From assembly GCA_964532465.1 (NCBI GenBank), contig CAZHHX010000019.1:589-64588 (forward strand): a stretch of 64,000 nucleotides of DNA. The letters run 5' to 3'. The translations under genes and the position numbers were made by a program. Within the stretch, counting starts at the first letter, position 1. Each line of letters begins with the position of its first letter. The notes beneath the pieces were generated by a model. The model was given only the letters and a program-made list of their open reading frames with translations, had not been told where the DNA came from and did not search any database. The stretch comes from an uncultured Syntrophorhabdaceae bacterium. GTDB lineage: Bacteria; Desulfobacterota; Syntrophorhabdia; Syntrophorhabdales; Syntrophorhabdaceae. Below are positions 14,981-38,456 of this stretch, piece after piece.

Positions 14981-16210
14981 CTATGGGGAAATCTCTTCTT
15001 CTGTCAGATAGCACTGCGGGTCTTCTGCCCACACGTCGCCCGTAAATGCTTCAGCCCTGACCCTGAAATTTCCGGCGCATATATTCAGCCATCGGCACCT
15101 TGCGCATCTGCCTTTCACAAAACGCTTCTTATCCTTCAGCTTTGCCATAAGTTCGTTGGAGGAATCTGTCCATATTTTGCTGAAGGGTCTTTCTCTAACA
15201 TTGCCAAAGGCATAATGCCTCCAGAATTGGTCCGCATGGATATACCCTTCTTCATCCACACAGGCAATGCCCTTGCCTGACGCATTCCCTTCATTCATCA
15301 TAAGAAGTTCATATACCTCTTCAGCCCTTTTTCTGTTCTCATTTAAAAGTCGAAGATATATGTAGGCGCCATCGGCGTGGTTGTCAACAGTAAGCACTTC
15401 GATGGGGTTGCCTTTGTCAAAAAAGGATTTTGTTCGGTCCAGAATATAATCAACAACTTTTCTTGACTTATCGTGAGGGAGGTCTTCAGCAATCAGCTTT
15501 GAGCCTCTTCCCGCATATACGAGGTGATAGAAGCAAACCCGCTCTATGCCTTCTTCCTCAATAAGGTCAAAAACCTTTGGAATCTCCTTGTAATTTCTTC
15601 TATTTATCGTGAATCGCAAACCTACCTTTATTCCTGCCTTTTTTGCGTTCCTGATCCCGGTTATGGCACGCCCGAAAGCCCCTTTAACACCCCTGAAGGA
15701 ATCATTTATTTCTCCGATGCCGTCAATACTGACTCCTACATAGGAGAGTGAAAATTCTGAAAACATCTGCGCTTTTTCCTGCGTAATGAGGGTGCCGTTC
15801 GTTGAGATGACTGCCCGCATCCCTTTTTTTACCGCGTAGCCGATAAGGTGGGGCAGGTCATCCCGCAGCAGAGGCTCGCCGCCGGAAAAAAGGATTACAG
15901 GCACGCCAAAAGAAGCAAGGTCATCTATCAACTTTATGCCTTCATGTGTTGAAAGCTCCTTTCCTTTGTATCCTTCATCTTCAGCAAAGGCATAACAGTG
16001 TACACACTTCAGATTACACCGTTTTGTCATATTCCATACAACTACCGGTTTTTTATCCTGGGAAAACTGCAGCAGATGCGAAGGCAGCTTTGACGAATCT
16101 CTGCCGTACCTGAGGGGGTCTGATGCCTCAACGACCCCGCAATACAACTTGGATATGCCGATCATTCTGTTATTTTGTACATAAAAGGATAAAATGTCAA
16201 CACAGATCAT
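14981..16210 (-). CDS. Radical SAM/SPASM protein, NirJ/AhbC/AhbD-like
   Basis: CNLKCVHCY (CX3CX2C), the N-terminal ISKLYCG...DPLRYG...LLQFS pattern I associate with NirJ/Ahb proteins, and a C-terminal Cys-rich SPASM-like region. The start may instead be M16 at 16165. Confidence 0.7.
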   Translation of the reverse strand: MICVDILSFYVQNNRMIGISKLYCGVVEASDPLRYGRDSSKLPSHLLQFSQDKKPVVVWNMTKRCNLKCVHCYAFAEDEGYKGKELSTHEGIKLIDDLASFGVPVILFSGGEPLLRDDLPHLIGYAVKKGMRAVISTNGTLITQEKAQMFSEFSLSYVGVSIDGIGEINDSFRGVKGAFGRAITGIRNAKKAGIKVGLRFTINRRNYKEIPKVFDLIEEEGIERVCFYHLVYAGRGSKLIAEDLPHDKSRKVVDYILDRTKSFFDKGNPIEVLTVDNHADGAYIYLRLLNENRKRAEEVYELLMMNEGNASGKGIACVDEEGYIHADQFWRHYAFGNVRERPFSKIWTDSSNELMAKLKDKKRFVKGRCARCRWLNICAGNFRVRAEAFTGDVWAEDPQCYLTEEEISP

Positions 16211-16489
16211 GGGTCAAGCGCATTTAGGACAATATTCCCTACCCGTAAACCCATTGATCTCAGGTTCAAAGAGAAAGGTTTGGACATGCCATCAAAAGCC
16301 TGATAAATGAATGGTTTGAATAGTAATGCAAATTATTCTCGTAATATTCTTCAGTTAAGGTATTTATAGTTATGCTGTAAAAAGGGGCAACATAATTATA
16401 TTACAGATATGTTCATGAAGATAAGAATTGACACATCTATTCACTTTTTTTATACTTAGTCTATTATAAAAATAATTTCCAATAAGCTA

Positions 16490-17170
16490 ATGGAATTTCA
16501 ACTGGACATGCGTCGCACTCAGCAATATGACATGTTTATGCGTCTGCCCATCATCGCGATATCATCTTTTTTCTTGTGGAGAGATTTTAATTCCTTACGT
16601 GGTTTTGTCATTACTCATCCGTTTTTTGATGGAGACTGGAATTTTTTGATCAGTCTTTCCGCCCGTATCGGCATGATCTTTTTTTTAGTTCTGCTGGTGG
16701 TTTTTCATGCCGCACGCTACAGGTCGGTCTCCGGTTACACAACATTCAGTCCCAGAATCGCAGCATTAATGGGCATGGGCCTGGCATATTTGCTGCTTTT
16801 GTTCCCGCGCGCAGATCAGCAGGTCTGGTATGATCTTGCCTCGTCAACACTGCTTTTTATAGGCAATTTTCTATGTTTGATTTCTGTGACAACTCTTGGA
16901 CGTTCTCTCAGTATTATGCCGGAGGCAAGAAAACTTGTCACCGATGGCGTCTACACTCACATCCGCCATCCGCTTTATCTTGCTGAAATGATATCCGATC
17001 TTGGTATTTTGCTTCAGTATCGTTCGTTCATAACAGTTGTGATCCTGATGGCAGTGTTTTATTTCCAATTGCGCCGTATTCATTGGGAAGAACAGATTCT
17101 TGCCGAGACTTTCCCGGAATATAAAATCTACAGATGCACTTCATGGCGGCTGTTGCCTCGAATTTATTGA
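16490..17170 (+). CDS. Isoprenylcysteine carboxyl methyltransferase (ICMT)/phospholipid methyltransferase family membrane protein
   Basis: Multi-TM protein with signature GVYTHIRHPLYLAEMISDLGILL. Confidence 0.75.
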   Translation: MEFQLDMRRTQQYDMFMRLPIIAISSFFLWRDFNSLRGFVITHPFFDGDWNFLISLSARIGMIFFLVLLVVFHAARYRSVSGYTTFSPRIAALMGMGLAYLLLLFPRADQQVWYDLASSTLLFIGNFLCLISVTTLGRSLSIMPEARKLVTDGVYTHIRHPLYLAEMISDLGILLQYRSFITVVILMAVFYFQLRRIHWEEQILAETFPEYKIYRCTSWRLLPRIY

Positions 17171-17619
17171 TGTATTCTTTCATCGGGTTGGCATTGGCCT
17201 ACATAAATATAATAGTAGCGGCCGTTTATATTTCAATTAAATTATTGCCGCAGACGGGGTTTTATCCCTGTATAAATGCAACATCGCACGAATCGTTGAA
17301 TATTGAGTTTATATACCAAGGACATACCAGCATCACATCATGCAAGCAGCGTTTACAGACAGTGGAAAATGCGATGAGACTTGCCTGTCCGACGTGCAGG
17401 ATTGAGGCTGGTTGTTCATCGGGTTTGGACAAAGATCAGCGGCGGAAGCTGACAAGCTTGCCGCTTGCTCAACCTTCTATAAAACTATCGGAGGGCGTGT
17501 TGGTTTTCGTCTCACCATATCCTGAAATAGCCGGCACAGCTTGCATTCAGACTGGGGAACAATTAAAAAAGATTGGCGGACGCTGTTTTATGCCCAATCA
17601 GGGAAGACCGCGGTACTGA
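17170..17619 (+). CDS. Hypothetical membrane-anchored Cys-containing protein
   Basis: The ATG overlaps the ICMT stop (TGATG). One N-terminal TM segment (MYSFIGLALAYINIIVAAVYISI). No family recognised. Confidence 0.4.
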   Translation: MYSFIGLALAYINIIVAAVYISIKLLPQTGFYPCINATSHESLNIEFIYQGHTSITSCKQRLQTVENAMRLACPTCRIEAGCSSGLDKDQRRKLTSLPLAQPSIKLSEGVLVFVSPYPEIAGTACIQTGEQLKKIGGRCFMPNQGRPRY

Positions 17620-17796
17620 TAGAGGAAATGTGTTTCAACATAAAAAAGGCATGCCTGTTATAACTTATCCATTAAGTTTAATTCCCTATCTGCCTCTGAA
17701 ATAATTTATATATGCCCGAAGAACTTTTTTTTATAACTCTGATTGTTGTATAATTAATCAGAGTTATAAAACCTGCATTAAAGGAGTATTAAAGAC

Positions 17797-19077
17797 ATGC
17801 CTTTTTTAGAAATTATTTCCGTAATAATTCTTTTAATCCTGAACGGCATTTTTTCAGCAGGAGAAATGGCCATTGTTTCCCTGAGAAAAAGTGAGATAAG
17901 TGAGATGGTGAAGGAAAAAAAAGAAAAAAGAGCCGATGCGTTGCTCGAAATGAAGGAAAATCCGGAAGGATTCCTCTCCGCAGTGCAGATCGGCATTACT
18001 TTATTCGGCACCCTTGCATCTGCTATAGGAGGCGTCTTTTCGGTAAAGTACCTCAAGCCGTTGTTTGACGATATACCTTTTATCCGGGCCATAAGCGATA
18101 CAGTTTCTCTCGCAATTGTAGTAGTTGTATTAACATATTTTTTCCTTATTATCGGTGAGCTTGTGCCGAAATATATCGGCATTAATTATAAAAAACGTGT
18201 TGCCCTGTGGGTTACGCCCTTATTCGGTTTTACCTCCAGGTTTTTCTTTATTTTTGTGAATCTTATGTCGCTCTCTACAATGTTCGTAGTGCAAAATCTT
18301 AATCTGAAAAAACGTGAAGAGCATTTCGGAGAGGGTGAAATAAAAATATTGCTGGAGGAGGGCAGGAGGAAAGGTATTTTTGATAAGACAGAAGAGGAGT
18401 TAATCCATGGTGTATTTGAATTTGCCGACAAGTCGGTAAAAGATGTTATGGTTCCCAAACCGAATATTTACAGCATCAATATTGAAGACACCAAAGAAAC
18501 CATCATGGAATATATCGTTGAAAACGAATTTTCCCGTTACCCTGTTTACAAGCACAATCTTGATAACATTGCAGGCATTGTTTATCTAAAAGACATCTTT
18601 AAGCAGATGTGGGGTCAGCAGGCAGATTTCAATCTGGAAAAACTGGTAAGAAAGCCTTATTTTGTGCCTGATACAATGAAGGTGAACGTCTTGTTGAAGG
18701 AGATGCAAAAAAGACGTCAGCACCTTGCTGTTGTTATTGATGAATACGGAACAACCATTGGCATTGTTACGCTTGAAGATCTTATGGAAGAAGTATTCGG
18801 GGAAATTATGGATGAGACAGACGTGGACAATAGAATAGAAAGACTAAGGGACGGCGCTATTATTATTGATGCCTCCTATTCTGTCAGGGACCTGAACAAC
18901 AGGTTGAATATCAATCTGCCGGAATCCCCTGATTATGAGACCCTCGGTGGATTTATTCTTATCCGGCTACAGGATATTCCCAGAGGCGGAGAGATAATTC
19001 ATCATGGGGCGCAGAGATTCACTGTAGTGGGCTTAGAGGGAAGAAGAATCACAAAAGTTAAACTCGACAAACCCTGA
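17797..19077 (+). CDS. CNNM/TlyC-family hemolysin-like protein (DUF21 + CBS pair + CorC_HlyC)
   Basis: 426 aa with an N-terminal TM domain, a central CBS region and C-terminal HLAVVIDEYGTTIGIVTLEDLMEEVFGEI. Confidence 0.85.
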   Translation: MPFLEIISVIILLILNGIFSAGEMAIVSLRKSEISEMVKEKKEKRADALLEMKENPEGFLSAVQIGITLFGTLASAIGGVFSVKYLKPLFDDIPFIRAISDTVSLAIVVVVLTYFFLIIGELVPKYIGINYKKRVALWVTPLFGFTSRFFFIFVNLMSLSTMFVVQNLNLKKREEHFGEGEIKILLEEGRRKGIFDKTEEELIHGVFEFADKSVKDVMVPKPNIYSINIEDTKETIMEYIVENEFSRYPVYKHNLDNIAGIVYLKDIFKQMWGQQADFNLEKLVRKPYFVPDTMKVNVLLKEMQKRRQHLAVVIDEYGTTIGIVTLEDLMEEVFGEIMDETDVDNRIERLRDGAIIIDASYSVRDLNNRLNINLPESPDYETLGGFILIRLQDIPRGGEIIHHGAQRFTVVGLEGRRITKVKLDKP

Positions 19078-19329
19078 AGAAACCGCCACATCATCGACAG
19101 TTAAGATATTTATTTTATCTGACGATAATACATAGATGGAATAAATGTGCTACAATATAGTAATATATCTTCAATCTTTGTGGATATTTTGACATAAATT
19201 GTAGGAGGAGTTGAAAAAAAGCGTGTTTTTTCAAGTAAATTGAACGGCACTAAAATTGCAATTTTTATGATGTATAATGAAAGCAAGGATTATTAATATA
19301 GTATTTTTTATTAATATGGAGGAAAGAAT

Positions 19330-19959
19330 ATGAAAAAAACATACTTAACCTTGATTATAACAGGTTTTATATTGATGTTCAGCGCCAATGCCGGTCTTGC
19401 CGTCGACACCATCAATCTCCTGACTCTCCCATCCGCCACCTATAGCGGATATTATGTCGGCGCAGTTGGCGGAAACCTCAATGGCGGGTATGCCATGAAA
19501 TACTATTGCGACGACTTTGCCACGACAACCTATGTGCCCAGTTCTTTTGCCGTGGCGGTAAGCACTCTGTCCAACCTTTCTCAAACAAAATTCGGCGGCG
19601 CGCCTAACGCGGTCTCAATGTATCAGCAGGCAGGATGGCTTATCAGCCAGATGGAGAGCAACCCCTCTCAGGTAGGGCAGATCCAGTTTGCATTATGGAA
19701 TGTCTTTAACTCATCAGCACCTGATCCTGCAGGTTCATCAGATTGGCTCAATGCCGCGCGTTCCATAGATGCTTCTAAATTTAACTTCAGCTCAGTACGC
19801 GTCTACACGGCAACCAATACCGTTAACCAGGAATTTATAAGCGGCGGCGCCACAGCGCTTCCCGAACCATCGGTTGTATTTCTGCTCGTCTTCGGCCTTG
19901 CCGGCTTAGGTTTTTTTAGATGGAAATTACGTAAGAAAACTGCCGGAAGCGTTTCTTAA
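19330..19959 (+). CDS. PEP-CTERM sorting-domain secreted protein
   Basis: Signal peptide. C-terminus ALPEPSVVFLLVFGLAGLGFFRWKLRKK, i.e. a PEP motif, a TM segment and a basic tail. Confidence 0.85.
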   Translation: MKKTYLTLIITGFILMFSANAGLAVDTINLLTLPSATYSGYYVGAVGGNLNGGYAMKYYCDDFATTTYVPSSFAVAVSTLSNLSQTKFGGAPNAVSMYQQAGWLISQMESNPSQVGQIQFALWNVFNSSAPDPAGSSDWLNAARSIDASKFNFSSVRVYTATNTVNQEFISGGATALPEPSVVFLLVFGLAGLGFFRWKLRKKTAGSVS

Positions 19960-20168
19960 AAAACCATTACAACACGAGGCAGAATACCGCAGATTTGCCT
20001 TTAGTAATCAATTTACAGCGCTAAATCATAAACGCATATTGATTGTTTGCATTGATTTGACGCAATCTCTTTTCCTTTATAGCCCGCCATAAGTTGATGT
20101 GCCATATTCACGTTGAAAATACAGGGTTTATGTGTTATGTTTATCAGATTGAAAAGGAGGTAGAGCAT

Positions 20169-20300
20169 ATGGGTTCTAATACAAAAAAGGTAGAATTAAG
20201 AAGAAAGAGGAAAAGAACAGCGTCAGGGAAGAAAAGAAAAAGAACTATGTCAAAGATGTCTACACCGGCTTTTGCTATTCATGTAGAAAAAAATGAGTAA
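20169..20300 (+). CDS. 43-aa polybasic small protein/peptide
   Basis: AGGAGG lies 8 nt upstream of the ATG at 20169. Sequence MGSNTKKVELRRKRKRTASGKKRKRTMSKMSTPAFAIHVEKNE. Its stop overlaps the downstream radical SAM start by 8 nt. Confidence 0.5.
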   Translation: MGSNTKKVELRRKRKRTASGKKRKRTMSKMSTPAFAIHVEKNE

Positions 20301-21447
20301 TGCCTTCCGTTATGAAATAGGTCCGATCAGGCCCCCTAATGAGGCATACAGCCTTTTATTGAGGTTTACCCGGAACTGCCCCTGGAACCAATGCTCCTTT
20401 TGTCACGCATACAAGAGGAGAAAGTTCGAAACAAGGGATCTGGAAGAAATAAAAAAAGATATAGATACTATAAGCGCCATACATGACGATATTGTAAATC
20501 TATCGTTGGAAAAAGGGTTTGATGGTAAAATCACCGAAGCGCTGGCAGAATACATATTCTCCGGCAACATCTATAATGAATGCTACAGAAGCGTAGCTGT
20601 CTGGCTGTATTTTGGAGGGAAAAACGTATTCATACAGGATGCGAACTCCCTTGCCATGAAACCGGATATTTTTGTTAATGCCCTGGAATACTTGAAAGAA
20701 AAGTTTCCAACTGTGGAAAGAGTAACTTCATATGCCCGTTCAAGGACTATTGCAAAAAAGCTGACTGTCGACGATTTAAAAAAGATAAAAAACGCCGGAC
20801 TTACCAGACTTCACATAGGTCTGGAATCAGGAAGCAATGCCCTCCTTAAGTACATGAAAAAAGGGGCGACGAAGGAAGATCACATTGAATGCGGGAAAAA
20901 GGTCAAGGAAGCCGGTATTGAGCTCTCCGAATATGTTGTGCTCGGCATGGGCGGCACAAAATGGTGGAAAAATCACGCGATTGAAACTGCCGAAGTTCTT
21001 AACCGGATAAACCCCGATTATATCCGTTTCAGGACATTAAAAGTCTTAAAGGATATGCTTCTCTACGAAAAGCTTGAAACAGGTGATTTTGCGCTCTCAT
21101 CTGAAGAGGAAATTGTTTCAGAGGAACGGCTTTTGATAGAGAATCTCAATGGAATTACAAGTCATATAAAAAGCGACCACATTCTTAACCTGCTCGAAGA
21201 GGTCGACGGCAAGCTTCCTGAAGATAAAGAAAAGATACTGTCTGTTATTGATGGATTTCTTTCCCTTACCGAGGAGCAGAAACTTGTATTCAGGTTTGGG
21301 AGAAGAGCCGGTATTTACAAGGGATTAAACGACTTAAATGATGAACTTACATGCTTCAAAATAAAAAAACAGATCCGTGAAATGGAAGCAAAAGAACCGG
21401 GCAGCATTGAAAAAACCCTCTCGCTGCTGCTTGACAATTATATCTGA
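20293..21447 (+). CDS. Radical SAM protein with non-canonical CX4CX2C spacing
   Basis: 384 aa. N-terminus GPIRPPNEAYSLLLRFTRNCPWNQCSFCHAYK followed by a TIM-barrel-like radical SAM core. Subfamily not recognised. Confidence 0.75.
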   Translation: MSNAFRYEIGPIRPPNEAYSLLLRFTRNCPWNQCSFCHAYKRRKFETRDLEEIKKDIDTISAIHDDIVNLSLEKGFDGKITEALAEYIFSGNIYNECYRSVAVWLYFGGKNVFIQDANSLAMKPDIFVNALEYLKEKFPTVERVTSYARSRTIAKKLTVDDLKKIKNAGLTRLHIGLESGSNALLKYMKKGATKEDHIECGKKVKEAGIELSEYVVLGMGGTKWWKNHAIETAEVLNRINPDYIRFRTLKVLKDMLLYEKLETGDFALSSEEEIVSEERLLIENLNGITSHIKSDHILNLLEEVDGKLPEDKEKILSVIDGFLSLTEEQKLVFRFGRRAGIYKGLNDLNDELTCFKIKKQIREMEAKEPGSIEKTLSLLLDNYI

Positions 21448-26635: not shown

Positions 26636-28165
26636 ATGGCTGATAACAACGAACTGGAAAGAACCCTCTGGGCTACGGCGGATAAGCTGCGCAACAATAT
26701 GGATGCGGCGCAGTATAAACACGTTGTTCTGGGATTGATCTTTCTCAAATATATCTCCGATGCCTTCAATGACCTCCACGGAAAGCTGAAAACAGGTAAT
26801 GGCGAATTTGAAGGTGCGGACCCGGAAGACAGGGATGAATACCTTGCTAAAAATATCTTCTTTGTCCCCGAAAAGGCCCGCTGGCAATTTCTTCAAGACC
26901 ACGCCAAACAGCCGGAGATAGGCAAGTTTGTTGACGAGGCTATGGAGGCAATCGAGAAAATCAATCCATCGCTCAAGGGTGTTCTGCCGCAAATTTACGC
27001 CGATGCTGATCTGAACAAACAAAGACTCGGTGAACTGATCGACCTTATTGCGACTATCGGATTTAACCAGGATGGCCATACATCAAAGGACCTACTCGGC
27101 AGAGTATATGAATACTTTCTTGGCCAGTTTGCTGATGCCGAAGGCAAAAAAGGCGGGCAGTTCTGGACTCCTCAAAGCATTGTGAAACTCCTTGTTGAAA
27201 TGCTGGAGCCTTACAAAGGGCGTGTCTATGACGGCTGCTGCGGTTCAGGCGGCATGTTTGTCCAGAGCGAAAAATTTATCCTCAGCCATCAGGGTAATAT
27301 CAAGGACATCTCTATTTACGGGCAGGAGTCAAACCCGGCAACTCTCCGTCTTGCCAGAATGAATCTTGCCATTCGAGGCATAGACGCCCAACTGGAAGTC
27401 GGGGACACCTTTCTGAATGACAGGTTCAAGGACAAGGATTTGAAATTCGACTTTATCCTTGCCAATCCACCCTTCAACATAAGCGATTGGAGCGGCGAGC
27501 TTCTGCGCGATGACAGCCGCTGGAAATACGGTGTTCCGCCAACAGGTAATGCCAACTATGCCTGGCTTCAGCACTTCGCCCACAAACTCAGCCCAAGCGG
27601 TACTGCCGGGATTGTCCTTGCAAACGGGAGCATGAACAGCAACACCGGCGGAGAAGGCGAGATACGGAAGAACATGATCGAAGCAGGACTTATAGATTGT
27701 ATGGTGGCCCTGCCTTCTCAGCTTTTCTACAATACAATGATTCCCGCATGCCTCTGGTTTCTGGCGCGGAACAAAACCAATCACAAATTCCGCGACCGCT
27801 CGAAAGAAATTCTCTTTATCGATACCCGCAAACTCGGCACAATGCTCAACCGGCGCAACCGCGAATTGACCGATGCCGATATAGCCCTCATTGCCGGAAC
27901 ATATCACAGTTGGCGCAGCAAAGACGGTGGATATGAAGACAAAACTGGTTTCTGTAAATCGGCCACAATTGCAGAGGTGCAAAATAACGGACACGTATTA
28001 ATGCCCGGACGTTACGTGGGTACAGAGGAAGAAATTGACGATGGAATCCCCTTTGATGACAAGATGAAAGTCCTCACAACAAAGCTGGCCGAGCAGTTTG
28101 CCAAAAGCTCGGAATTGGAGAAGACCATTCGGGAAAATCTCAAAGGGATCGGGTATGAGTTTTAA
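26636..28165 (+). CDS. hsdM: Type I restriction-modification system DNA methyltransferase subunit M
   Basis: HsdM N-terminal domain ([32 protein letters not shown]), SAM motif DGCCGSGGM and catalytic NPPFN. Confidence 0.95.
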
Positions 28166-29510
28166 GGAAGGCGAAACAATCGAACTCAAGAAAAGCCTTA
28201 CCGCCCTCAAGGAGGGCTTGATCTCAATCTCGGCGATCCTCAATAAACACGGCGCAGGCGAACTCTGGTTCGGTGTTGCCCCTGACGGCAAGCCGAAAGG
28301 TCTCGTAATAAATGACAAAACACTCCGTGATATCTCGCAATCTATTGCCGCACATATTGAGCCAAAGATTTATCCGCAGGTCACCGAGGAGAAACTGGAC
28401 GGTAAGACCTGCATCAAGATAGTCTTTTCAGGAAAAGAAAAGCCTTATTTTGCATACGGCAGGGCTTATATGCGCGTGGCCGATGAGGATAGACACCTTA
28501 CCGCTAAAGAACTTGAAAACCTTATCCTTGCCAGAAACCGCCAAGGGATTCGTTGGGATAATGATCCTTCAGATGTCTCCATAAAAGACATTAGCGAAAG
28601 AAAGGTCAAGGCTTTTATAAAACGAGCAGGTCTTGTATGGGACAATATCACCAACGTATTGGAGAAACTGGGGCTTTCCCATAACGGGCAGTTGCTCAAC
28701 GCCTCTATACTCTTTTTTGCCAGGAAACCAACACTCCAGTTGCGTTGCGCCGTCTTTGCCTCGACAGACACTGCAACCATTATCGACCGACACGATTTCA
28801 CCGGAGATATCCTGGACCTCATTGAAGAGGCGCAGAAGTACATTCTCAAGAACATTCACATAGGGATGCGGCTCGACGGCCTTTACCGCGTTGACGTACC
28901 GGAAATTTCGGTGGCCGCTATGCGCGAGGCGATTATCAATGCCTTTTGCCATCGCGACTATCGTGATCCGGACTATGTGCAGGTAGCTATTTTCAAGGAC
29001 CGCGTCGAGATCAGAAATCCCGGCGGGCTATACGGAGGCCTGACGATCAAGAAGATACGGAAGGGCAACGTTTCCAAGAGGCGGAATCCCCTTGTTGCCG
29101 ACCTGCTGCGTCGAATCCAGATGGTTGAGACCTGGGGGCGCGGAATGCGCCTTATCCTCACCGAGGAACCGACTGTGCAATTCAGCGAAATAGCCCAAAT
29201 ATTCATCGCCGCCTTCAATAGACCGTCTTTTGTTGGTAGCGGTAAAGGAGAAACCGGACGTACCGGCGCGGCAACTGTTGGTATAGACGGCACGCCAACC
29301 AAAGAAACACCAAAGAAACACCAAATAAACACCAAAGAATCTATCCTCGCGGCTCTCAGGGAACGCCCCGAAATAAGTGTGAAAGAGCTTGCGGCCCAAT
29401 TAGAACAGACTACCGCCAGTATTCGGCATCACATGCGAATGCTTCAGAAAGCAGGAGTCGTCCGTCATGTGGGATCAACAAAAGCAGGACATTGGGAGGT
29501 AATGAAGTGA
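28155..29510 (+). CDS. AlbA_2 (Schlafen-like) domain + HATPase_c_4-like + C-terminal wHTH protein
   Basis: Starts [14 protein letters not shown], typical of divergent-AAA/AlbA_2 proteins, and ends [14 protein letters not shown] (wHTH tail). The ATG at 28155 overlaps the hsdM stop. Confidence 0.75.
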
Positions 29511-29785
29511 AGGCCTTTCAACCCGAGACCGCGAGAGTATATGGTAATAGCCAACAAGCTGTTGGCCGAATTGCGAAACAGCTTGTTTCGCAAATGCCGA
29601 AAGACGGATGCAGGCAACAGGTTGCTGCCCAAATTATGCTTGCCGAGTATGCACTGAGTGATATCCACAAGCCCATAGGTGCTTCTGAATATCAGCTTAC
29701 TCAGGTGCTCCCTGATAGCCTGAAACCCAGCCTGCCTAGTATAGAGGAGATTGAGAGAGAGCTGGGAAAGGGTGTAGAGGAGTGA
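29507..29785 (+). CDS. Hypothetical 92-aa protein
   Basis: GTG start overlaps the upstream stop (GTGA) and is preceded by GGGAGG. C-terminal SLPSIEEIERELG. No family recognised; possibly a gene remnant. Confidence 0.4.
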   Translation: MKAFQPETARVYGNSQQAVGRIAKQLVSQMPKDGCRQQVAAQIMLAEYALSDIHKPIGASEYQLTQVLPDSLKPSLPSIEEIERELGKGVEE

Positions 29786-30015
29786 CAACGACAGAAAGAA
29801 TCACCGAAGAAAGTTCGGGTAAAAGTTCGGGGAAAACTGAAGAGCAGATAGTCGGGTTACTTTCGGCCAATGGAAAGCTGACAATTCCTGAACTGGCGGA
29901 AGCCCTTGGCATTACGACTCGTGCAGTAGAAAAACAGATCGCCAGGCTACGCGGGCAAGACCGTCTACGCCGTGTGGGGCCAGCCAAAGGCGGGCACTGG
30001 GAAGTGGTGAAATGA
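29782..30015 (+). CDS. Stand-alone winged-helix DNA-binding protein (77 aa)
   Basis: GTGA overlap with the upstream ORF. LTIPELAEALGITTRAVEKQIARLRGQDRLRRVGPAKGGHWEV parallels the C-terminus of the 28155-29510 protein. Confidence 0.55.
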   Translation: MTTTERITEESSGKSSGKTEEQIVGLLSANGKLTIPELAEALGITTRAVEKQIARLRGQDRLRRVGPAKGGHWEVVK

Positions 30016-30136: not shown

Positions 30137-31384
30137 ATGAGTAAAGAAGGGTGGGTAAAAAGAAAACTTCAAGATATTTGTAGCTTAGTAACTGATGGTA
30201 AGCATGGTGATTGTGAAAACCACGAGAACTCCGGCTACTATTTTATAAGCGCGAAAGACGTAACGAACGGAAAAATTTCATATATAAATGCACGTCAGAT
30301 CACTAAACAGGATTTCGAAGATACTCACAAAAGAACTCAATTAGAACCTTTTGACGTTTTGCTAACAAACAGCGGCACGATTGGTAGGTTGGCGTTGGCA
30401 GGGGATAACAAGTTAACACGTAGGACAACTTTTCAGAAAAGTGTTGCCATACTTAAGCCTATTAAAAACAAAGTAACCCCTCAATTTCTTTATTATAATC
30501 TATTGTCACGGACAAGAGATATCATAAATACAGCATCAGGAACAACACAACAAAATCTTTTATTAGGTGATCTACGGGCATTTGAGCTTGAAATAACAGA
30601 CGATTTGGCCACACAAAACCACATTGCCGCCATCCTCTCCTCTCTAGACGATAAAATAGAACTCAACCGCCAGACCAATGCCACACTGGAAGCCATCGCA
30701 CAGGCCATTTTCAAGGAATGGTTTGTTGATTTCAATTTCCCCGGCGCAACCGGCGAGATGCAGGACAGCGAATTAGGACCGATTCCGAAGGGATGGAAGG
30801 TGGAGAATCTCAGCAACACAGTAGAGATTATTGGAGGTGGTACACCCAAAACCTCAGTCGAAGACTATTGGAACGGAGATATTCCCTGGTTTTCTGTAGT
30901 TGATGTGCCACATGATTCCGATGTATTTGTAATTAATACCGAAAAAAAAGTTACTCAAACTGGAATTGATAACTCCTCGACAAATATATTGCCAGAAGGT
31001 ACTACGATAATTTCAGCAAGAGGAACTGTTGGAAAAATAGCGCTTAGCGGTGTTCCTATGGCTATGAATCAATCTTGCTATGGTCTCAATGGTAAACAAG
31101 ATGATATTGGTATATATACTTTTTATTTGACGCGATCCATTTCCTTGCAATTACAGAAAGGTGCAAATGGTTCAGTTTTTGATACCATAACCAGAAGTAC
31201 TTTTGAACAAATGGCGGTTGTTCATCCACCCAAGGAAGTTATTGAGCGGTTCAATATTGCAATAAATGCTGTAATGATGAGGATCAAAGAAAATCTTTAT
31301 GAATCCAGCACTCTTATCCAAATCCGCGACAACCTATTGCCGAAACTCATGTCAGGTAAAATATGTATAAAAGAGGTAGAATAA
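30137..31384 (+). CDS. hsdS: Type I restriction-modification system specificity subunit S
   Basis: 415 aa. Two target-recognition domains separated by the conserved helix AAILSSLDDKIELNRQTNATLEAIAQAIFKEWFVDF, and C-terminal LIQIRDNLLPKLMSGK. Confidence 0.92.
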   Translation: MSKEGWVKRKLQDICSLVTDGKHGDCENHENSGYYFISAKDVTNGKISYINARQITKQDFEDTHKRTQLEPFDVLLTNSGTIGRLALAGDNKLTRRTTFQKSVAILKPIKNKVTPQFLYYNLLSRTRDIINTASGTTQQNLLLGDLRAFELEITDDLATQNHIAAILSSLDDKIELNRQTNATLEAIAQAIFKEWFVDFNFPGATGEMQDSELGPIPKGWKVENLSNTVEIIGGGTPKTSVEDYWNGDIPWFSVVDVPHDSDVFVINTEKKVTQTGIDNSSTNILPEGTTIISARGTVGKIALSGVPMAMNQSCYGLNGKQDDIGIYTFYLTRSISLQLQKGANGSVFDTITRSTFEQMAVVHPPKEVIERFNIAINAVMMRIKENLYESSTLIQIRDNLLPKLMSGKICIKEVE

Positions 31385-31444
31385 CGAATATGAATCGCCA
31401 TATATTTCTATATCTTTCATGCAATTTACGGAGGTTGAGATACT

Positions 31445-31894
31445 ATGTCCGATATTAACCTTACCCAGGCCGAAGCCGATCTGCTCATCGCTATGGAAAA
31501 ACATCGCCTTAACAATGACCGATGGGAATACCCTGTAGTTGGCGGATCAATCAGTATACCTTTGATTTCCTCTAACAAAAGGGAAAGCTTCATTCTTGAT
31601 GTGAGTCGTGGGAAAATTGATCTTTTGAAGGGAACCTATCAAAACCGCTCCAGACAGGTGATTATTCTTGTACGTCTGGATTTTGGAGGTCGCCCCCATC
31701 GTAACCCGGATGGTCAAGAGGTTACATCTCCTCATCTTCATCTGTATCGGGAAGGTTATGGTGATAAATGGGCTGCTCCTGTGCCTTCCGAAATCTTTCC
31801 GGATATATCGGATTTATGGCGACTTTTGGAAGATTTCATGAGATTTTGTAATATTACAGAGCCTCCATCAATGCAAAAGGGGTTGTTTACATGA
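31445..31894 (+). CDS. Uncharacterised 149-aa protein (restriction-linked ORF A)
   Basis: GGAGG RBS. His/Pro-rich motif [31 protein letters not shown] only vaguely recall it as an uncharacterised DUF. Confidence 0.7.
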
Positions 31895-32655
31895 TAGATG
31901 AAATTCAGAAGTTATTGGATAAATATCTGGTATGGCTGAAGGATAAGACTGCTCTTCGCCAGGTAAAGGATTGGGTTGAGATTACTACACCTTACCTCGA
32001 CAGGCATAATGATTACCTCCAGATATACGTGAAACACGAAAATGGCGGATTTATTCTTACTGATGACGGCTATACGATAGAAGACCTGAAGCGTTCAGGT
32101 TGTGAGTTGGAAAGCAAAAAACGAACCGATCTTCTAAATCTCACGCTGAATGGTTTCGGGATAAGACTGGTTAATAATGCCTTGATTGTCCATGCCTCAC
32201 CTGATAATTTCGCATTAAGAAAACATAATCTGGTTCAGGCAATGCTTGGAGTTAATGACCTCTTTTATCTGGCTGCCCCAATGGTTGCAAACCTCTTTCT
32301 TGAAGATGTGACTTCATGGTTGAATTTGCATGAGATACGCTATACACCCAATATCAAGTTTACGGGTAAGAGCGGCTACGACCATCTTTTTGATTTTGTC
32401 ATTCCTGCATCAAAACAGCAGCCTGAGAGAATATTGAAAGCAATAAACCGGCCAAACCGTGATACCGCCGAGGCGCTGGCATTTTCATGGATTGATACAA
32501 AAGAAGTGCGGCCTGCCAACTCCCGTGCATATGTTTTTCTTAATGATTCAGAACATTCTCCGTCAACATCAGTAATTGACGCATTAAAAAACTATAGCGT
32601 TAATCCCGTCTTGTGGAGCCATAGAGAACAGGCAAGTGGGGAATTGGCTACTTGA
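31891..32655 (+). CDS. Uncharacterised 254-aa protein, DUF1828/DUF1829-like architecture (restriction-linked ORF B)
   Basis: ATGA overlap with ORF A. The N-terminus [41 protein letters not shown] matches my memory of DUF1828. Confidence 0.7.
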
Positions 32656-32823
32656 AGAATGTTTTTGTATCAGAAAAGACTGAAGCCGCCCACAGGGACG
32701 GCTTCGAACGCTCCTTCTACACATGGCAGGCGAGGCTGACATGAGCATAATTGAATCTGTTCTGGTCGTCAAGTGTTTTAGAAGATTGTGTAACAAGTTC
32801 CATTGTTGTTTGGAGAAAAACTC

Positions 32824-35800
32824 ATGATCCTTTACGAATCAGAAATCGAACAGATTGCTCTTGAGATTCTTCGCGACGAGAATCAATACAACGAAATCCT
32901 TTATGGCCCAGACGTCTCCGAAGGAGTCGCTAAGGAGCGCGAATATACCGAAGTTGTCCTGCAAGCCCGCCTTCGGACGGCTATCGACCGCATCAACCCC
33001 AACATCCCTACCGAAGCAAGAGACGACGCCTTCAAAAAGTCCATTCGTACCTCCTTTACAACTGTCATCGACAACAACGAAACATTCCATCGCCTCCTTA
33101 CCGAAGGCGTAGACGTCAAATTCGGCATCGGTGAAGGTAAATCAAAAAGTGATAAGGTTAGACTCATCGACTTCGATAACCCGGAAAACAACGAATTCGT
33201 GGCTGTCAATCAGTTCACAGTCCTTGAAAACCATAACAACAAGCGGCCTGACATTGTCATTTTTATTAATGGTATCCCCCTTGTGGTAATGGAACTGAAA
33301 AACCCTGCCGATGAGAATGCTGACGTGCAGGCAGCCTTCAATCAACTCCAGACCTACCAGCAGCTTATCCCGTCGCTCTTTACCTACAATGCTTTTCTTG
33401 TCATCAGTGACGGCTGGTTTGCGAAGATCGGCACCATCTCCAGCGATTACTCACGTTTTATGGACTGGAAGAGCGTTGACGGCAGGACCATTGTGGATGC
33501 CAAGCATCAGTCCGAACTGGAACCCATGATAAAGGGACTTCTTAATAAAGCAACCCTCCTTGATGCTATCCGCCACTTCATTGTCTTCGAAAAGACCAAA
33601 GAGGCAACAATTAAGAAGATTGCTGCCTATCATCAATATTATGCCGTCAACCGGGCCATTACTTCCACTATCCGCGCCTCTGTGGAACCGGGGTCTTTTG
33701 TGGCTGAGCATCCCGCAGAGTATGGTTTTCAAAGTGTTGACGAGCAGGTCCAGGGTGACAAGCGGGCAGGTGTTGTCTGGCATACACAGGGCAGCGGCAA
33801 GAGCCTCTCCATGGTGTTCTACGCGGGTAAGCTCGTGCTGGCGGAAGAGATGAACAACCCCACTATTGTGGTGCTCACTGACCGGAACGATCTTGACCAG
33901 CAGTTATTTGAGACCTTCGGCAACTGTCAGCAGCTTCTCCGCCAGACCCCGACTCAGGCAGCCAATCGGGACGATCTTCGAAAGCTTCTCTCTGTGGCCT
34001 CGGGCGGCATTATCTTTACAACCATTCAGAAGTTCCTGCCTGAAGAGAAAGGCGGGACTTATCCACTTCTTGCTGACCGGCGGAACATTGTGGTTATTGC
34101 CGACGAAGCCCACCGGAGCCAGTACGATTTTATTGACGGTTTTGCCAGACATATGCGCGATGCCCTGCCAAATGCCTCCTTTATCGGATTTACCGGGACT
34201 CCTCTTGAAAAGGAGGACAAGAATACCCAGGCTGTATTCGGTAATTATATTGACATCTACGATATCCAGCAGGCTGTGGAAGATGGTGCAACCGTACCTA
34301 TTTATTATGAGAGCCGTCTTGCACGGGTTAACCTCTCAGAGTCTGACCGCAAAATACTCGATGAGCGCGTGGAAGAGGTAACGGAAGACGACGAGTTAAC
34401 TGAACGGCAGAAACGCTTTGTGAAATGGGCAAGCAAAGAGGCTGTTGTGGGCAGTGCAGACAGACTGAAACAGGTTGCCGCCGATCTGGTCAAACACTTC
34501 GAAGGACGGCTCAGTGCGTCAGCAGGCAAAGGTATGATTGTATGCATGAGTCGTCGAATCTGTGTCGGCTTGTATGGCGAGATTATCAAATTGAGGCCCC
34601 ACTGGTACAATTCAGAGGATGACAAGGGGGCTATCAAGGTGATTATGACGGGATCTGCAAGTGATCCCCTTGACTGGCAGGAACATATCCGTAATAAAGA
34701 ACGCCGCAAAGCCATCGGCAACAGGCTGAAAGACCCTGATGATCCGCTCAAGCTCGTTATTGTCCGTGATATGTGGCTCACCGGTTTTGATGTGCCCTGC
34801 CTCCATACAATGTATGTTGACAAACCCATGAACGGGCACAACCTGATGCAGGCCATTGCACGCGTCAACCGTGTCTTTGGCGACAAGAAAGGCGGTCTGG
34901 TAGTTGATTATATCGGCATCGCCCAGGACCTGAAGAACGCGCTGGCAAACTATACGGCAAGCAAAGGCAGGGGCGAGATTGCCTATGATCTGGATGAGGC
35001 GGTTGCAAAGATGCAGGAACTATACGAAATCGTAGTAGATATGTTCGATGGTTTTGATTATTGCCGATATTTTACGCTTGAACCGAAGGCAAAGCTTGAA
35101 TTTATTCTTGATGCCGCCAATTTCATCGAAGAACTTACCGGTGACAAAGAGGGAAAAGTTATCCGCAATGGGAAAGAACGTTTTAAGGAAAACGTTGTCC
35201 GTTTGCAGCAGGCCTTTGGTCTTGCCGTACCACATCCTAAAGCCATAGAAATTCGCGATGATCTTGCTTTATTCCAAGCTATCAAAGCCCGTTTTGCCAA
35301 GTTTGAGGATCAGACCAGAACCAGGACTAATCAGGAAATTGAAACTGCCATCAGACAGATTATAAATGACGCCATTATTTCAGAGGAAGTGGTGGATGTC
35401 TTCGATGCCGCCGGTATTAAGAAACCCGACATTTCAATTCTTTCAGATGAATTCCTTGCCGAGATTCAGGGAATGAAGCGGCAAAACCTTGCGTTGGAAC
35501 TACTCAAACGACTCCTCAATGACGAGGTCAAAACCCGTGGAAAAACTAATCTCGTACAGGGCCGAAAGTTCTCCGAAATGCTTGCCGACGCGGTCAAGCG
35601 TTACCAGAGCGGACTGATTGATTCGGCAAGGATGATTGATGAACTGATTCGACTGGCCAAAGACATTAGAGAGGCCGACAAACGCGGCGAAAAGATGAAC
35701 CTGCGGCCCGATGAGTTAGCCTTCTATGATGCTTTAGCCGATAACCCGACTGCTGAAGCGGTGCTCGGCGACTACACACTAAAACTCATTGCCCATGAAC

Positions 35801-36009
35801 TTGTGGAAACCGTGCAGAAAAATACCTCAATTGACTGGCAGGTAAAAGAGAGCGTCCAAGCTAAACTCCGGGTAATGGTGAAGAGGATACTCAGAAAATA
35901 CAAATACCCGCCTGACGACCCGTCAACAGGCGAATATACAGTTTCGGTTACCAAAGTGCTGGATCAGGCCGAAGCGCTAGCCGATTTCTGGTCAACTGAT
36001 GAAAAATGA
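32824..36009 (+). CDS. hsdR: Type I restriction endonuclease subunit R (HsdR)
   Basis: HsdR N-terminal nuclease region ([19 protein letters not shown]), helicase motif [13 protein letters not shown] box [10 protein letters not shown] and motif [10 protein letters not shown]. The ATG at 32824 follows GGAGA. Confidence 0.95.
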
Positions 36010-36214: not shown

Positions 36215-36457
36215 ATGGCTGCAAGAACATTGAAATTAGACATTTCTTTTCAGGAACTTCTTGCCGTTGTGGATCAGCTTGAATTGGATGAAAAAATGTT
36301 TCTCAGAAAAAAACTGGACAGGGAAAAGGTCCCTTCGTGGCAGGAACGTTTCGGAAGAGCGCTTCAACAGCTTGGTAATAAAAATAAGAGGTTCACAATA
36401 AAGGAAGTGCTGACCGATGTTGAATGTGCTATTTCCGATGTAAGAAAAAATGCATAG
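36215..36457 (+). CDS. Putative antitoxin-like small protein (80 aa)
   Basis: Strong RBS TAAGGAGG. Its stop overlaps the ATG of a PIN-like remnant. No family recognised. Confidence 0.5.
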   Translation: MAARTLKLDISFQELLAVVDQLELDEKMFLRKKLDREKVPSWQERFGRALQQLGNKNKRFTIKEVLTDVECAISDVRKNA

Positions 36458-36569
36458 AATTAAGGCTGTTTTAGACACCAATATTATTATTAGTGGTATC
36501 GTAAAAAGCATGACATCAATTCCAATTAGTAAACAACATCGAGGGGGATTCATAAGGCAATTTTATTGA
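36450..36569 (+). pseudogene. Truncated PIN-domain toxin remnant (39 codons)
   Basis: MHRIKAVLDTNIIISGIVK is a typical PIN N-terminus with the first acidic residue (D9). The frame stops after 39 codons, whereas PIN toxins are roughly 130-140 aa. Confidence 0.6.
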
Positions 36570-36591
36570 TTACTAATTGTAGCATTTACGC

Positions 36592-36633
36592 CTGTCCTCG
36601 CTTGACGGGGACCTGTCCTCGCTTGACGGGGAC
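36592..36633 (+). repeat. Island hairpin units R2 (perfect 21-nt tandem duplication)
   Basis: CTGTCCTCGCTTGACGGGGAC x2, followed by TTCAC. Each unit folds as GTCCTCG/CGGGGAC. Lies 33 nt upstream of the ParB-like ATG. Confidence 0.85.
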
Positions 36634-36665
36634 TTCACGAAACTTAAAATAGGGGGAAGATAAAA

Positions 36666-37592
36666 ATGACTGAACTGGAAAAAAGGGGGAGTCCGGAATT
36701 TATGCACCTAACTTTGGGGAGTATTGTTGTGGAGGAACAGATTCGCTCAAGTGTTGATACGGAGGGAGAGTCTTTCAAGGCCCTTGTGGAATCTGTTAAA
36801 GACCGGGGTGTTTTAGAACCTGTTATCGTAATGCCGAAGGAAGATAAATACCTTCTCCTCTGCGGGGAGAGGCGTTATCAGGCTGCACAGAAGCTGGAAA
36901 TGGAATCCATCCCGGCGCTTGTTGTCGATACGATCATTCAGAAGGACGAAGTATTAGCCTACCAACTGACAGAAAACCTCCAGAGGGAAGACCTCAACCC
37001 CATAGACCAGGCGAAGGGGATTTTGTCATTTATTCAGGCAAGACATCCTGACAAAGGGTATGATGTGGATGGGGTAATGAGTGATTTGGTAAGCTACAAC
37101 AGAAGGCCTGAAGACCTGGCTGAGGAAATTGCGGACACATTGTCCGCAATCGCAGAAATCTCCGGGAAGTCAACACGGACGCTGCTTCGCATGATTTCAC
37201 TTTTAAAACTTTCTCCTGAAATTCAGGCCGCAATCCGGGCAGAAAATCTTCCTGTTTCCCAGGGTTATCTCTTTGCCGCAAACCTTGATTGCCCTGATCT
37301 CATGAAGATATTCACCGATATTTTAAAAACGCCAGTAACCTATATAACTTTAGAAAGCAGACTCACTGCGTACAAAAAAGTCAAACCGGACATGGGCAAA
37401 ACAAAGCCTGTGCCTGTTAAAAAGTATGTTGCCGGTATTGTATCTATGAAAACAGGTTTTGAGAAAGACCTTGGAACCTATGTGCGTGAAGATGTTGAAA
37501 AATTCCTTCATGAACTCTTAGTTTTCTGTGATTATGTCCAGCAACAGGTGCCCAAAATACCATATGGAAAGAAAAGACGGCCACAGGTATAA
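36666..37592 (+). CDS. ParB/Srx-fold N-terminal domain protein (orphan ParB-like, no ParA partner)
   Basis: VLEPVIVMPKEDKYLLLCGERRYQAAQKLEMESIPALV is the ParB box / GERR motif. Confidence 0.8.
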   Translation: MTELEKRGSPEFMHLTLGSIVVEEQIRSSVDTEGESFKALVESVKDRGVLEPVIVMPKEDKYLLLCGERRYQAAQKLEMESIPALVVDTIIQKDEVLAYQLTENLQREDLNPIDQAKGILSFIQARHPDKGYDVDGVMSDLVSYNRRPEDLAEEIADTLSAIAEISGKSTRTLLRMISLLKLSPEIQAAIRAENLPVSQGYLFAANLDCPDLMKIFTDILKTPVTYITLESRLTAYKKVKPDMGKTKPVPVKKYVAGIVSMKTGFEKDLGTYVREDVEKFLHELLVFCDYVQQQVPKIPYGKKRRPQV

Positions 37593-37594
37593 AA

Positions 37595-37799
37595 ACAGTG
37601 AATAGTTGTTAGCTCACAGTGAATAGTTACGAAGGCAGTGGATAGTGGATAGTGGATAGTGGATAGTGGATAGTGGAAAGATAAGCGGGCTTGTAAAAGA
37701 GGGAAAGACGGTGGAGCGGGAAAAGATGGGGTATAGGGGTTGCGGGTTGCGGGTTGACACTGAATTTGTTTTTTATCATTTACTGTTTACTGTTCACTA
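37595..37799. repeat. Iteron-like repeat cluster
   Basis: ACAGTGAATAGTT x2 (37595, 37616). AGTGGAT x5 plus one imperfect unit (37637-37678). GGGTTGC x3 with the last unit imperfect (37737-37757). TTTACTG x2 plus TTCACTA (37779-37799). Confidence 0.9.
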
Positions 37800-37806
37800 A
37801 CGACGC

Positions 37807-37849
37807 CTGCTCTTGCCTGGCGGGAGCCTGTCCTCCCGAAGGGAGGGAT
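37807..37849 (+). repeat. Island hairpin units R3 (two diverged tandem units + TCAC)
   Basis: CTGCTCTTGCCTGGCGGGAGC followed by CTGTCCTCCCGAAGGGAGGGAT. The second unit keeps a 7-bp stem (TCCTCCC/GGGAGGA) through sequence changes relative to R2. Confidence 0.65.
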
Positions 37850-38005
37850 TCACTGTGGTTAAAAGAACTCGTTAAGTCCCCGTAGGCGGGGGCAGGCAGG
37901 AATGGTTGAAGGCGAATTGGTATCATATGGTGAAAATCTAATACCATAGTCTTTCATTGACATCAAATTTCTACAAACGATATAATTGTATATATGGAGG
38001 ACAAA

Positions 38006-38209
38006 ATGAGGGCTTTATTTATATCTATCGATGAAAGTATATTTGACAGGTTTGTAGGTTTTTTGAAACTGTTCCCGAAAAACAAAGTCCGGATTGAGGA
38101 GATTGTCTGCAATGAAGCTCTTAAGAGCGAGCTTGCCGAGAGAAAAACCCAAGCAAAGAAAGGAGAAGTAATTGCACATGACGAGTTCTGGTCCAAGGCC
38201 GGATTATAA
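38006..38209 (+). CDS. Antitoxin of a RelE/ParE-type toxin-antitoxin pair
   Basis: 67 aa starting at the ATG after GGAGG. Overlaps the downstream toxin gene. Confidence 0.6.
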   Translation: MRALFISIDESIFDRFVGFLKLFPKNKVRIEEIVCNEALKSELAERKTQAKKGEVIAHDEFWSKAGL

Positions 38210-38456
38210 AATCGTTTACTCTAAATCTGTTGCAAAGGATATAAGAGACATAGAAACCCGCTCATTAAGGAAAATTAAGTCCGAAATCGAGAAACTTGTC
38301 CGATTTCCTGATGTCGAAAACACTAAAAAACTGACAAACCACCCCATATCTGACTTCAGAATGAAAGTAGGGAACTACAGAGTTCTTTTTGATGTGGACG
38401 ATAATACAAGAATCATATTCATCTTAAAGATAGGCCATAGAAGAGAAGTCTATTGA
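38178..38456 (+). CDS. Type II toxin-antitoxin system RelE/ParE-family toxin
   Basis: YKIVYSKSVAKDIRDI...FRMKVGNYRVLFDVDDNTRIIFILKIGHRREVY is the classic RelE/ParE C-terminal pattern. Confidence 0.85.
   Translation: MTSSGPRPDYKIVYSKSVAKDIRDIETRSLRKIKSEIEKLVRFPDVENTKKLTNHPISDFRMKVGNYRVLFDVDDNTRIIFILKIGHRREVY

Follow-up and report, generated by a model that had tools for sequence, protein, structure and literature searches.

What does a coupled pair of genes do when it is lodged between hsdS and hsdR, the specificity and restriction subunit genes of a type I restriction-modification (R-M) operon? The pair considered here, gene A and gene B, lies on contig CAZHHX010000019.1 of an uncultured Syntrophorhabdaceae bacterium (GenBank assembly GCA_964532465.1), and the 64,000 nucleotides of positions 589 to 64,588 of that contig constitute the window that we analysed. 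The original prediction, made from the letters of the window, had proposed an undescribed accessory immunity or abortive-infection module guarded by, or guarding, the type I enzyme. We identify the pair, from its profile matches, as a member of the catalogued defence candidate PDC-M24, and we tentatively favour the explanation that it is an autonomous, nuclease-based module of two proteins directed against phages or other mobile elements, which would be co-transcribed with the R-M genes but independent of them.

Identity of the cassette and pairing of its genes

Searches with hidden Markov models (HMMs) of Pfam and PADLOC, which the original prediction had recommended, assigned both proteins to families. 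A matches DUF6978 over its full length (PF22398, 6.8e-47), and B matches DUF1828 (residues 33-121, 1.1e-27) followed by DUF1829 (residues 159-245, 5.8e-33), the two domains of unknown function that the original prediction had named for it. In PADLOC, A matched the PDC-M24A profile (PDLC04538, 1.2e-58, residues 5-148 on profile positions 2-145 of 146) and B the PDC-M24B profile (PDLC04539, 5.1e-107, residues 4-253 on profile positions 3-254 of 255). The two genes also have the architecture of PDC-M24, being adjacent on one strand, A before B, with a 4-nt overlap; the end-to-end matches, gene order, strand and type I R-M embedding are all shared with this candidate, and no difference was found. 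The window copy is a new member of it, with up to 90% identity to its closest relatives. An NCBIfam scan gave no model matching A or B, and in PHROGs both fall only in phage families of unknown function.

PDC-M24 corresponds to cassette CAS_00098 (FAM_00129>>FAM_00065) in Table S8 of the study by Payne, Hughes, Fineran and Jackson, who took genes lodged inside BREX, DISARM and type I R-M systems as the source of 145 'phage defence candidates', and whose candidates entered PADLOC (PADLOC-DB v2) without experimental tests (bioRxiv 10.1101/2024.01.29.577857). The reasoning from embedding in the original prediction was sound, yet it had already been applied by these authors, and with the pair listed in PADLOC the word 'undescribed' no longer applies. 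A search of the accessible literature found PDC-M24 in no main text and DUF6978, DUF1828 and DUF1829 in incidental mentions only.

The association of the two genes was followed from both sides. Searching species-representative genomes with B revealed relatives in 286 species, the best 80 loci of which (64-82% identical, in more than 20 phyla) were analysed; the nearest relatives among them come from Nitrospirota and Deltaproteobacteria metagenome-assembled genomes (MAGs). A lies directly 5′ of B in 77 of these 80 loci, and the junction reads CATGAT at nearly all of the 80. In a reciprocal set of metagenome and viral loci, found with the single A protein and retained where enough downstream sequence was present, B follows A immediately in 72 of 72, so the co-occurrence that the original prediction had proposed to check is found in both collections. 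Homologues form more than 4000 clusters for A and more than 7700 for B, with about 1100 A clusters at 50% identity and thousands at 90%; with thousands of clusters on either side and a junction kept in almost all of the 80 loci across more than 20 phyla, the coupled pair goes far beyond chance. When B is only 24-36% identical, the gene upstream still encodes a DUF6978 protein (1e-30 to 1e-37), as was seen in Staphylococcus phage 37, the Lactobacillus prophage Lj965, the Streptococcus phages Javan642, Javan197 and MissF, and S. delphini prophages.

Divergence was compared in 18 operons with full-length A, B, HsdM and HsdR, namely that of the window and those of 17 related loci. The divergences of A and B co-vary (Mantel r=0.79, p=0.0005), and the two genes are one evolutionary unit. 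Mean pairwise identity in the same operons is 70% for A, 76% for B, 68% for HsdM and 62% for HsdR. The GC content at third codon positions (GC3) of B spans 0.29 to 0.86 over all related loci, in step with the host (r=0.86 against the hsd genes and r=0.88 against distant flanks). This range, combined with near-constant proteins that remain 65-80% identical, means that synonymous positions have been fully rewritten and that both genes are real and under strong selection, and the host-like GC3 indicates that each cassette has long been resident in its genome.

Decay of the pair is asymmetric. Among 79 loci with an intact B, 11 have lost A or carry a disrupted copy, several of them through clear deletions, and B is disrupted in 1-2 of 64 loci with an intact A (Fisher p=0.012-0.04), a comparison between two locus sets from different collections in which some disruptions may be assembly frameshifts. 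B alone was also found in a streptococcal satellite and in Lactobacillus intestinalis. Because B persists without A, A is not the antitoxin of a lethal B. The asymmetry is suggestive only, either of a core B with A as its modulator or of A as a dispensable toxic effector controlled by B.

Predicted folds and conserved residues

The structure of A was modelled with AlphaFold2 from an alignment of 72 diverse representatives (38-62% identical), giving a predicted local distance difference test (pLDDT) of 92.8 and a predicted template modelling score (pTM) of 0.86. Its elements are predicted to run helix, four strands, long loop, three strands, helix and two short strands. Foldseek returned no match to this model in the PDB (best E 0.29, template modelling (TM) score at most 0.24), and its best match in BFVD was an uncharacterised 154-aa Siphoviridae protein at E 0.055. 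Against PDB sequences, nothing significant was obtained for A or B by single sequence or by profile, the A family profile giving 0 matches. As modelled, A is thus a confidently predicted protein that has no counterpart among solved folds.

Across the 72 representatives, K19, L75, R77, N87, P88 and H99 of A are invariant, and R68, H85, D89, H97, Y101 and C135 are at least 90% conserved. H97, H99 and Y101 alternate on one predicted strand (residues 97-102) and should therefore face the same side, an arrangement of alternating residues that is a common build of metal sites. A metal or catalytic site formed by the invariant His, Asn and Asp residues is plausible on this pattern of conservation. 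The original prediction had singled out the same region, and its motif RPHRNPDG is indeed present, while the gap that follows spans five residues and not the seven it had given.

Other assignments of A were also considered. A HIT-like hydrolase, to which H97-L-H99-L-Y101 might point, was rejected at fold level, with no Foldseek match in the PDB and 0 profile matches to PDB sequences, and HIT structures are expected to be well represented there. For a RelE- or Ntox24-like toxin we found a sub-threshold Pfam match to Ntox24 (E 0.031, 15 bits against a cut-off of 24) with no fold support, a weak lead. Apparent domain fusions of A were traced to miscalled N-terminal extensions or to frameshifted A-B read-throughs.

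B was modelled from 145 sequences, including staphylococcal subfamilies at 28-32% identity, as two confident domains connected by a low-confidence linker at residues 128-133 (pLDDT 89.6, pTM 0.53). Foldseek against the PDB matched it to VC1899 (5.6e-5), Card1 (2e-4), Cdn1 (5.7e-4) and Bax1 (9.8e-4), and further to BstEII, R2 endonuclease, Can2, Kpn2I, XisH (TMt 0.63), MspJI, McrC and Avs4. The match is carried by residues 134-254, which are modelled as helix, three strands, helix and strand with pLDDT of about 90-95. By this model the C-terminal domain of B has the core fold of PD-(D/E)xK nucleases. E138, D139, D168, E179, N218 and D219 of B are 94-100% conserved after sequence weighting (D168 99%; E179 94% E and 6% D). 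In the N-terminal domain, Y12, W15, P34, Y46, D58, D59, G60, R78, K111, H112 and D123 are invariant; it is a possible recognition or sensor domain. A CARF-like sensor, to which the matches to Card1, Can2 and VC1899 had pointed, was rejected for this domain, as it is predicted to be an antiparallel meander and not Rossmann-like, and the TM scores of 0.34-0.39 fit a match of the C-terminal domain only.

Two groups of characterised proteins resemble B in part. Card1, Can2, VC1899, Cdn1, the type IIP enzymes BstEII and Kpn2I, and XisH share the nuclease fold of its C-terminal domain (E 5.6e-5 to 2e-2, probability 0.9-1.0) and its layout, with an accessory domain at the N-terminus and a nuclease domain at the C-terminus. 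Sequence similarity to them is absent, however, the predicted meander of B differs from a Rossmann-like CARF domain, the (D/E)xK lysine is not conserved in B, and its genes have no CRISPR or cyclic-oligoadenylate context. The second is DS-6B (DUF3037+DUF1829) of the validated two-gene defence system DS-6/HipAD, for which binding to the partner enzyme and to DNA is predicted (DefensePredictor, PMC13092281). The likeness, drawn from descriptions, consists in the DUF1829 annotation, whereas the partner of DS-6B is a HipA-type kinase and not a DUF6978 protein, and its N-terminal domain is DUF3037 and not DUF1828.

Genomic contexts and competing explanations

We next consider where the pair resides. 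Of the 38 loci flanked by 6 kb or more on each side, 24 carry hsdM or hsdS of the same family upstream and hsdR downstream, 13 have neither and one is partial; in the A-anchored metagenome set, where flanks are shorter (36 loci), 12 are embedded and 23 are not. The hsdS-hsdR junction, which the original prediction had compared with the site of PrrC, is thus a preferred location. The cassette always measures 1211 nt, and its boundaries are exact. In 24 of 68 loci the open reading frame (ORF) upstream ends in a stop codon that overlaps the ATG of A, at least 10 of these ORFs having HsdS C-termini ('...LLPKLISGELRV'); in 18 of 67 loci a long ORF downstream, which encodes HsdR in at least 14 of them, has a start that overlaps the stop codon of B. 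With overlaps on both sides, translation in many lineages runs as a coupled string through hsdS, A, B and hsdR.

The divergence of A or B is nevertheless not significantly correlated with that of HsdM or HsdR (Mantel r=0.03-0.10), whereas HsdM and HsdR diverge together (r=0.93), which indicates that operons have exchanged the cassette without regard to the enzyme around it. The coding ends that border it are conserved across phyla, '...LLPKLISGELRV' at the 3′ end of hsdS and 'FTESVVE..AAL' at the 5′ end of hsdR, and could serve as recombination arms for such an exchange.

Outside type I operons, solo copies lie among housekeeping genes, as in a Zixibacteria MAG where the pair is flanked by an alcohol dehydrogenase gene and by prmC/prfA. 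In a Nitrospiraceae MAG (locus L084) it adjoins an N6_N4 methyltransferase gene, with an unrelated type I operon 5 kb away on the opposite strand; that operon (15160-20765) has embedded genes of its own between hsdS and hsdR, encoding Peptidase_M78/HTH and DUF4411 proteins. The IncP plasmid pRSB223 carries one copy with the same 4-nt overlap. In S. aureus (locus L093, GCA_026471905.1, 2076-7789), two paralogous DUF6978 + DUF1828/1829 pairs flank lukD/lukE, a region that we take to be the nuSa-beta genomic island. One B representative covers 1886 member sequences, which makes the pair very common in S. aureus, and a DUF6978 protein of this species has been detected by proteomics in uninfected cells according to the literature.

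Temperate phages carry the pair with no hsd genes adjoining it. The pair, or B beside a truncated A, lies between repressor and integrase on their strand in all seven of the phage and prophage records analysed, and in Lj965 it is two genes away from an annotated superinfection-exclusion gene. The repressor-integrase module is the prophage site of lysogen-expressed genes of benefit to the host, such as the exclusion and defence genes rexAB of lambda and sie of lactococcal and streptococcal phages. The divergent A-B pairs occupy this module as Rex and Sie genes do, on the same strand as repressor and integrase; the Rex and Sie proteins have no homology to A or B, however, and the window copy is chromosomal, within an R-M operon and not prophage-borne. 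An accessory immunity module, as originally predicted, agrees with a coupled and conserved cassette that prefers the hsdS-hsdR junction and has further homes in prophages, on a plasmid and beside lukED.

In the autonomous module that we tentatively favour, B would be the core component, its N-terminal domain recognising nucleic acid and its PD-(D/E)xK domain binding and probably cutting DNA. A, which has an invariant His/Asn/Asp/Arg/Lys cluster and is made in a fixed ratio to B through the ATGA overlap, would be a metal-binding partner that joins B in a complex and gates or completes its activity. The module would be expressed constitutively, with the R-M genes or with the prophage repressor, and would act on incoming phage or other mobile DNA; embedding would then provide co-expression and co-transfer with a first-line defence and no specific molecular link to it. 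Its autonomy is argued by the uncorrelated divergence of A/B and HsdM/HsdR, by the solo copies and by the copy on the IncP plasmid. What the analysis itself shows is the linkage and coupling of the two genes, their constraint, their contexts and the folds, whereas the A-B complex, the nuclease activity, the part played by A and a defence phenotype are inferred.

Several points weigh against this explanation. B lacks the canonical Lys two residues past E179, position 181 being hydrophobic and 183 Q, N or K, so that its nuclease activity is not assured and the domain could merely bind DNA; catalysis by B, judged from the model, is plausible and not certain. With neither a recognisable fold nor a recognisable family, A is given a role by guesswork. 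At the 25 non-embedded loci the four nearest neighbours are heterogeneous and mostly unrelated to defence, with scattered defence-like matches only. The searchable literature yields no experiment on the phenotype, mechanism or structure of PDC-M24, and among other candidates of the same class four of eight protected E. coli against three phages (PMC12881386).

An unlikely alternative is a toxin-antitoxin or addiction module that stabilises its carrier, in which A would be the toxin, B its neutraliser or a DNA-binding regulator, and phage defence secondary. Two genes that overlap by 4 nt in one operon and are carried by plasmids, prophages and islands have the form of such a module, and A shows the sub-threshold likeness to Ntox24 (E 0.031). 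The DUF1829-annotated protein of DS-6/HipAD has likewise been proposed to be an antitoxin-like partner of the HipA-type kinase (PMC13092281). The decay asymmetry is as expected for a dispensable toxin A and a B that is harmless alone, but it was measured on sets from different collections with possible assembly frameshifts. B is moreover better conserved than A and HsdM and retains its full acidic set, which is unusual for an antitoxin, and neither protein contains a helix-turn-helix (HTH) or ribbon-helix-helix module or matches a known toxin or antitoxin family at Pfam thresholds.

The roles may instead be reversed, with A a metalloenzyme of new fold acting as effector or signal-maker and B a nuclease-fold DNA sensor that controls it. 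The two would then make up an immune module of new mechanism and one of the best-conserved accessory cassettes across bacterial phyla. The embedded form might then read the state of the type I R-M system, since translation of HsdR is coupled to the cassette; we consider this arrangement quite improbable.

The same low probability attaches to a guard of the PrrC kind, in which the pair would monitor the type I complex and an abortive-infection effector would fire once a phage anti-restriction protein had neutralised the enzyme. PrrC of EcoprrI and RloC are likewise encoded by an extra gene between hsdS and hsdR and co-transcribed with them, and the idea of a second-line effector is common to both. 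The position of the pair in the operon, its high rate of embedding (24 of 38 genome loci; 12 of 36 metagenome loci with short flanks) and the stop/start overlaps on both sides in many loci would all suit such a guard. PrrC and RloC are single proteins, however, with an N-terminal domain like that of ATP-binding cassette (ABC) ATPases and a C-terminal anticodon-nuclease domain, and A and B have neither according to Pfam, PADLOC and NCBIfam. PrrC is almost exclusively embedded in type I R-M systems (Payne et al., bioRxiv 10.1101/2024.01.29.577857), unlike the A-B pair, which is often solo or phage-borne and strongly constrained with no R-M genes nearby and in prophages. The lack of correlation between cassette and Hsd divergence (r of about 0.05) argues further against co-adapted protein contacts. 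A specific guard of the type I enzyme, or a module guarded by it, is thus a part of the original prediction that has no positive support.

It is very unlikely that the pair is a selfish nuclease cassette, with B a free-standing homing-type endonuclease and A its helper, which inserts between conserved genes with no benefit to the host. The PD-(D/E)xK fold predicted for B, the constant 1211 nt with exact boundaries, the conserved HsdS and HsdR coding ends as possible recombination arms and a phylogeny decoupled from the host operon are features that such a cassette would have. A fully host-adapted GC3 (r=0.86-0.88) speaks for long residence and not for recent spread, however, and A and B are under extreme amino-acid constraint. 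The contexts of insertion are also diverse with no common target, the phage copies sit in the lysogeny operon, the usual place of host-benefit genes, and flanking repeats do not exceed chance.

Least probable among the alternatives is an accessory of the R-M system itself: the pair would modulate the type I enzyme, for instance to control restriction while the system is being established, or to process or repair DNA once it has been restricted. Such a role would account for the overlap of the B stop with the hsdR start in at least 14 loci, which couples HsdR translation to B, and for the enrichment of the pair in one type I family (HsdM 50-65% and HsdR about 50-56% identical to those of the window), but not for pairs conserved without any type I genes, nor for a divergence that HsdM and HsdR do not share. 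That the pair acts against restriction or other defences was rejected as implausible, since its genes are co-transcribed with the R-M genes of the host and with a prophage repressor.

New here are the folds assigned, the evidence that the cassette is autonomous, its seamless coupling in translation, its place in phage lysogeny modules and its asymmetric decay; they sharpen the experiment and do not establish the function. The existence of the cassette would not surprise a specialist, and it is the conservation of the pair and the absence of a known fold for A that make testing worthwhile. PDC-M24 is an attractive target because its proteins are more conserved than the adjoining methyltransferase although synonymous sites have turned over, because one partner has no solved-fold counterpart, and because tractable native hosts such as S. 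aureus lysogens of phage 37 are available. If the pair is a true defence system, it would supply a new effector or sensor pair, a function for three Pfam domains of unknown function and a clear case in which defence cassettes move between R-M operons on their own; otherwise it would warn usefully against inferring defence from embedding.

The operon and its neighbours in the window

Features of the locus are collected in Table 1. Coordinates and Pfam matches of the neighbouring genes agree with the original description of two genes with an ATGA overlap between hsdS and hsdR. The GGAGG of gene A lies 60 nt past the hsdS stop codon (31382-31384). For hsdR, the ORF list extends the gene to TTG 32803; ATG 32824 is the likely start, judging from the GGAG upstream of it and from an N-terminus that aligns with the FTESVVE..AAL of homologues. 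Counted to this ATG, the spacer between B and hsdR is 168 nt, close to the roughly 170 nt first reported.

Table 1. Positions of the cassette, its parts and the type I genes around it, in window coordinates
Feature	Position	Strand	Description
hsdM, type I methyltransferase subunit	26636..28165	+	Pfam N6_Mtase 8.6e-108, HsdM_N 7.2e-26
hsdS, specificity subunit, two target-recognition domains	30137..31384	+	Pfam Methylase_S 6e-39, two stretches
GGAGG ribosome-binding site of gene A	31430..31434	+	read directly; 10 nt 5′ of ATG 31445
Gene A	31445..31894	+	149 aa; DUF6978 / PDC-M24A
Conserved polar core of A, residues 77-110	31673..31774	+	R77, H85, N87, P88, D89, H97, H99, Y101, A110; invariant or at least 90%
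ATGA stop/start overlap of A and B	31891..31894	+	translational coupling
Gene B	31891..32655	+	254 aa; DUF1828+DUF1829 / PDC-M24B
B N-terminal domain, DUF1828, residues 33-121	31987..32253	+	predicted four-strand antiparallel meander and helices
B C-terminal domain, residues 134-254 (incl. DUF1829)	32290..32652	+	predicted PD-(D/E)xK restriction-endonuclease fold
GC-rich hairpin in B-hsdR spacer	32682..32705		10 bp, 7 GC
hsdR, restriction subunit	32824..36009	+	Pfam HSDR_N 3.8e-46, SWI2_SNF2 3.3e-82, T1RH-like_C 3e-119

The whole spacer folds at -48.2 kcal/mol (z = -1.8). Its hairpin has no T-run on the plus strand and so is not a canonical terminator of that strand; a T-run follows it on the minus strand only, where no gene needs a terminator. 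Loci in which B and hsdR overlap are entirely without the hairpin-bearing spacer. Consensus matches for a cassette-specific promoter or terminator were no more numerous than expected from shuffled sequence. Direct or inverted repeats at the flanks, which would have hinted at transposition or integration, were not above chance in 1.65 kb, the single 10-nt inverted repeat found near the cassette comparing with about one expected there by a rough estimate.

The operon contains a second embedded gene, between hsdM and hsdS (28098-29510; likely start ATG 28155, overlapping the hsdM stop). It encodes a protein of 450-470 aa with Schlafen/AlbA_2, HATPase_c_4 and a C-terminal winged HTH domain, which gives weak PADLOC matches to pAgo-associated proteins. 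Relatives of this Schlafen-like protein occur in other cassette-bearing operons (loci L013, L040, L080 and L058, in the last of which the gene lies between B and hsdR). The interval from the Schlafen-like gene to hsdS contains two short ORFs (29492-30015). One encodes a 77-aa HTH protein; the other, of 97 aa, matches the end of the YhcG PDDEXK nuclease domain with its last 36 or so residues, below threshold, and looks like what is left of a third embedded gene after decay.

On the 3′ side of hsdR (36215-38456), an 80-aa ORF is followed by a gene for a ParB-like protein (ParB_N + HTH_ParB, 36666-37592) and by one for a ParE-family toxin (38172-38456), which overlaps a small ORF (37994-38209); this neighbourhood looks mobile or island-like. 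A search of Rfam gave no family match near the cassette, and the sole RNA gene found in the window is a tRNA-Pro (GGG) on the minus strand at 48756-48833.

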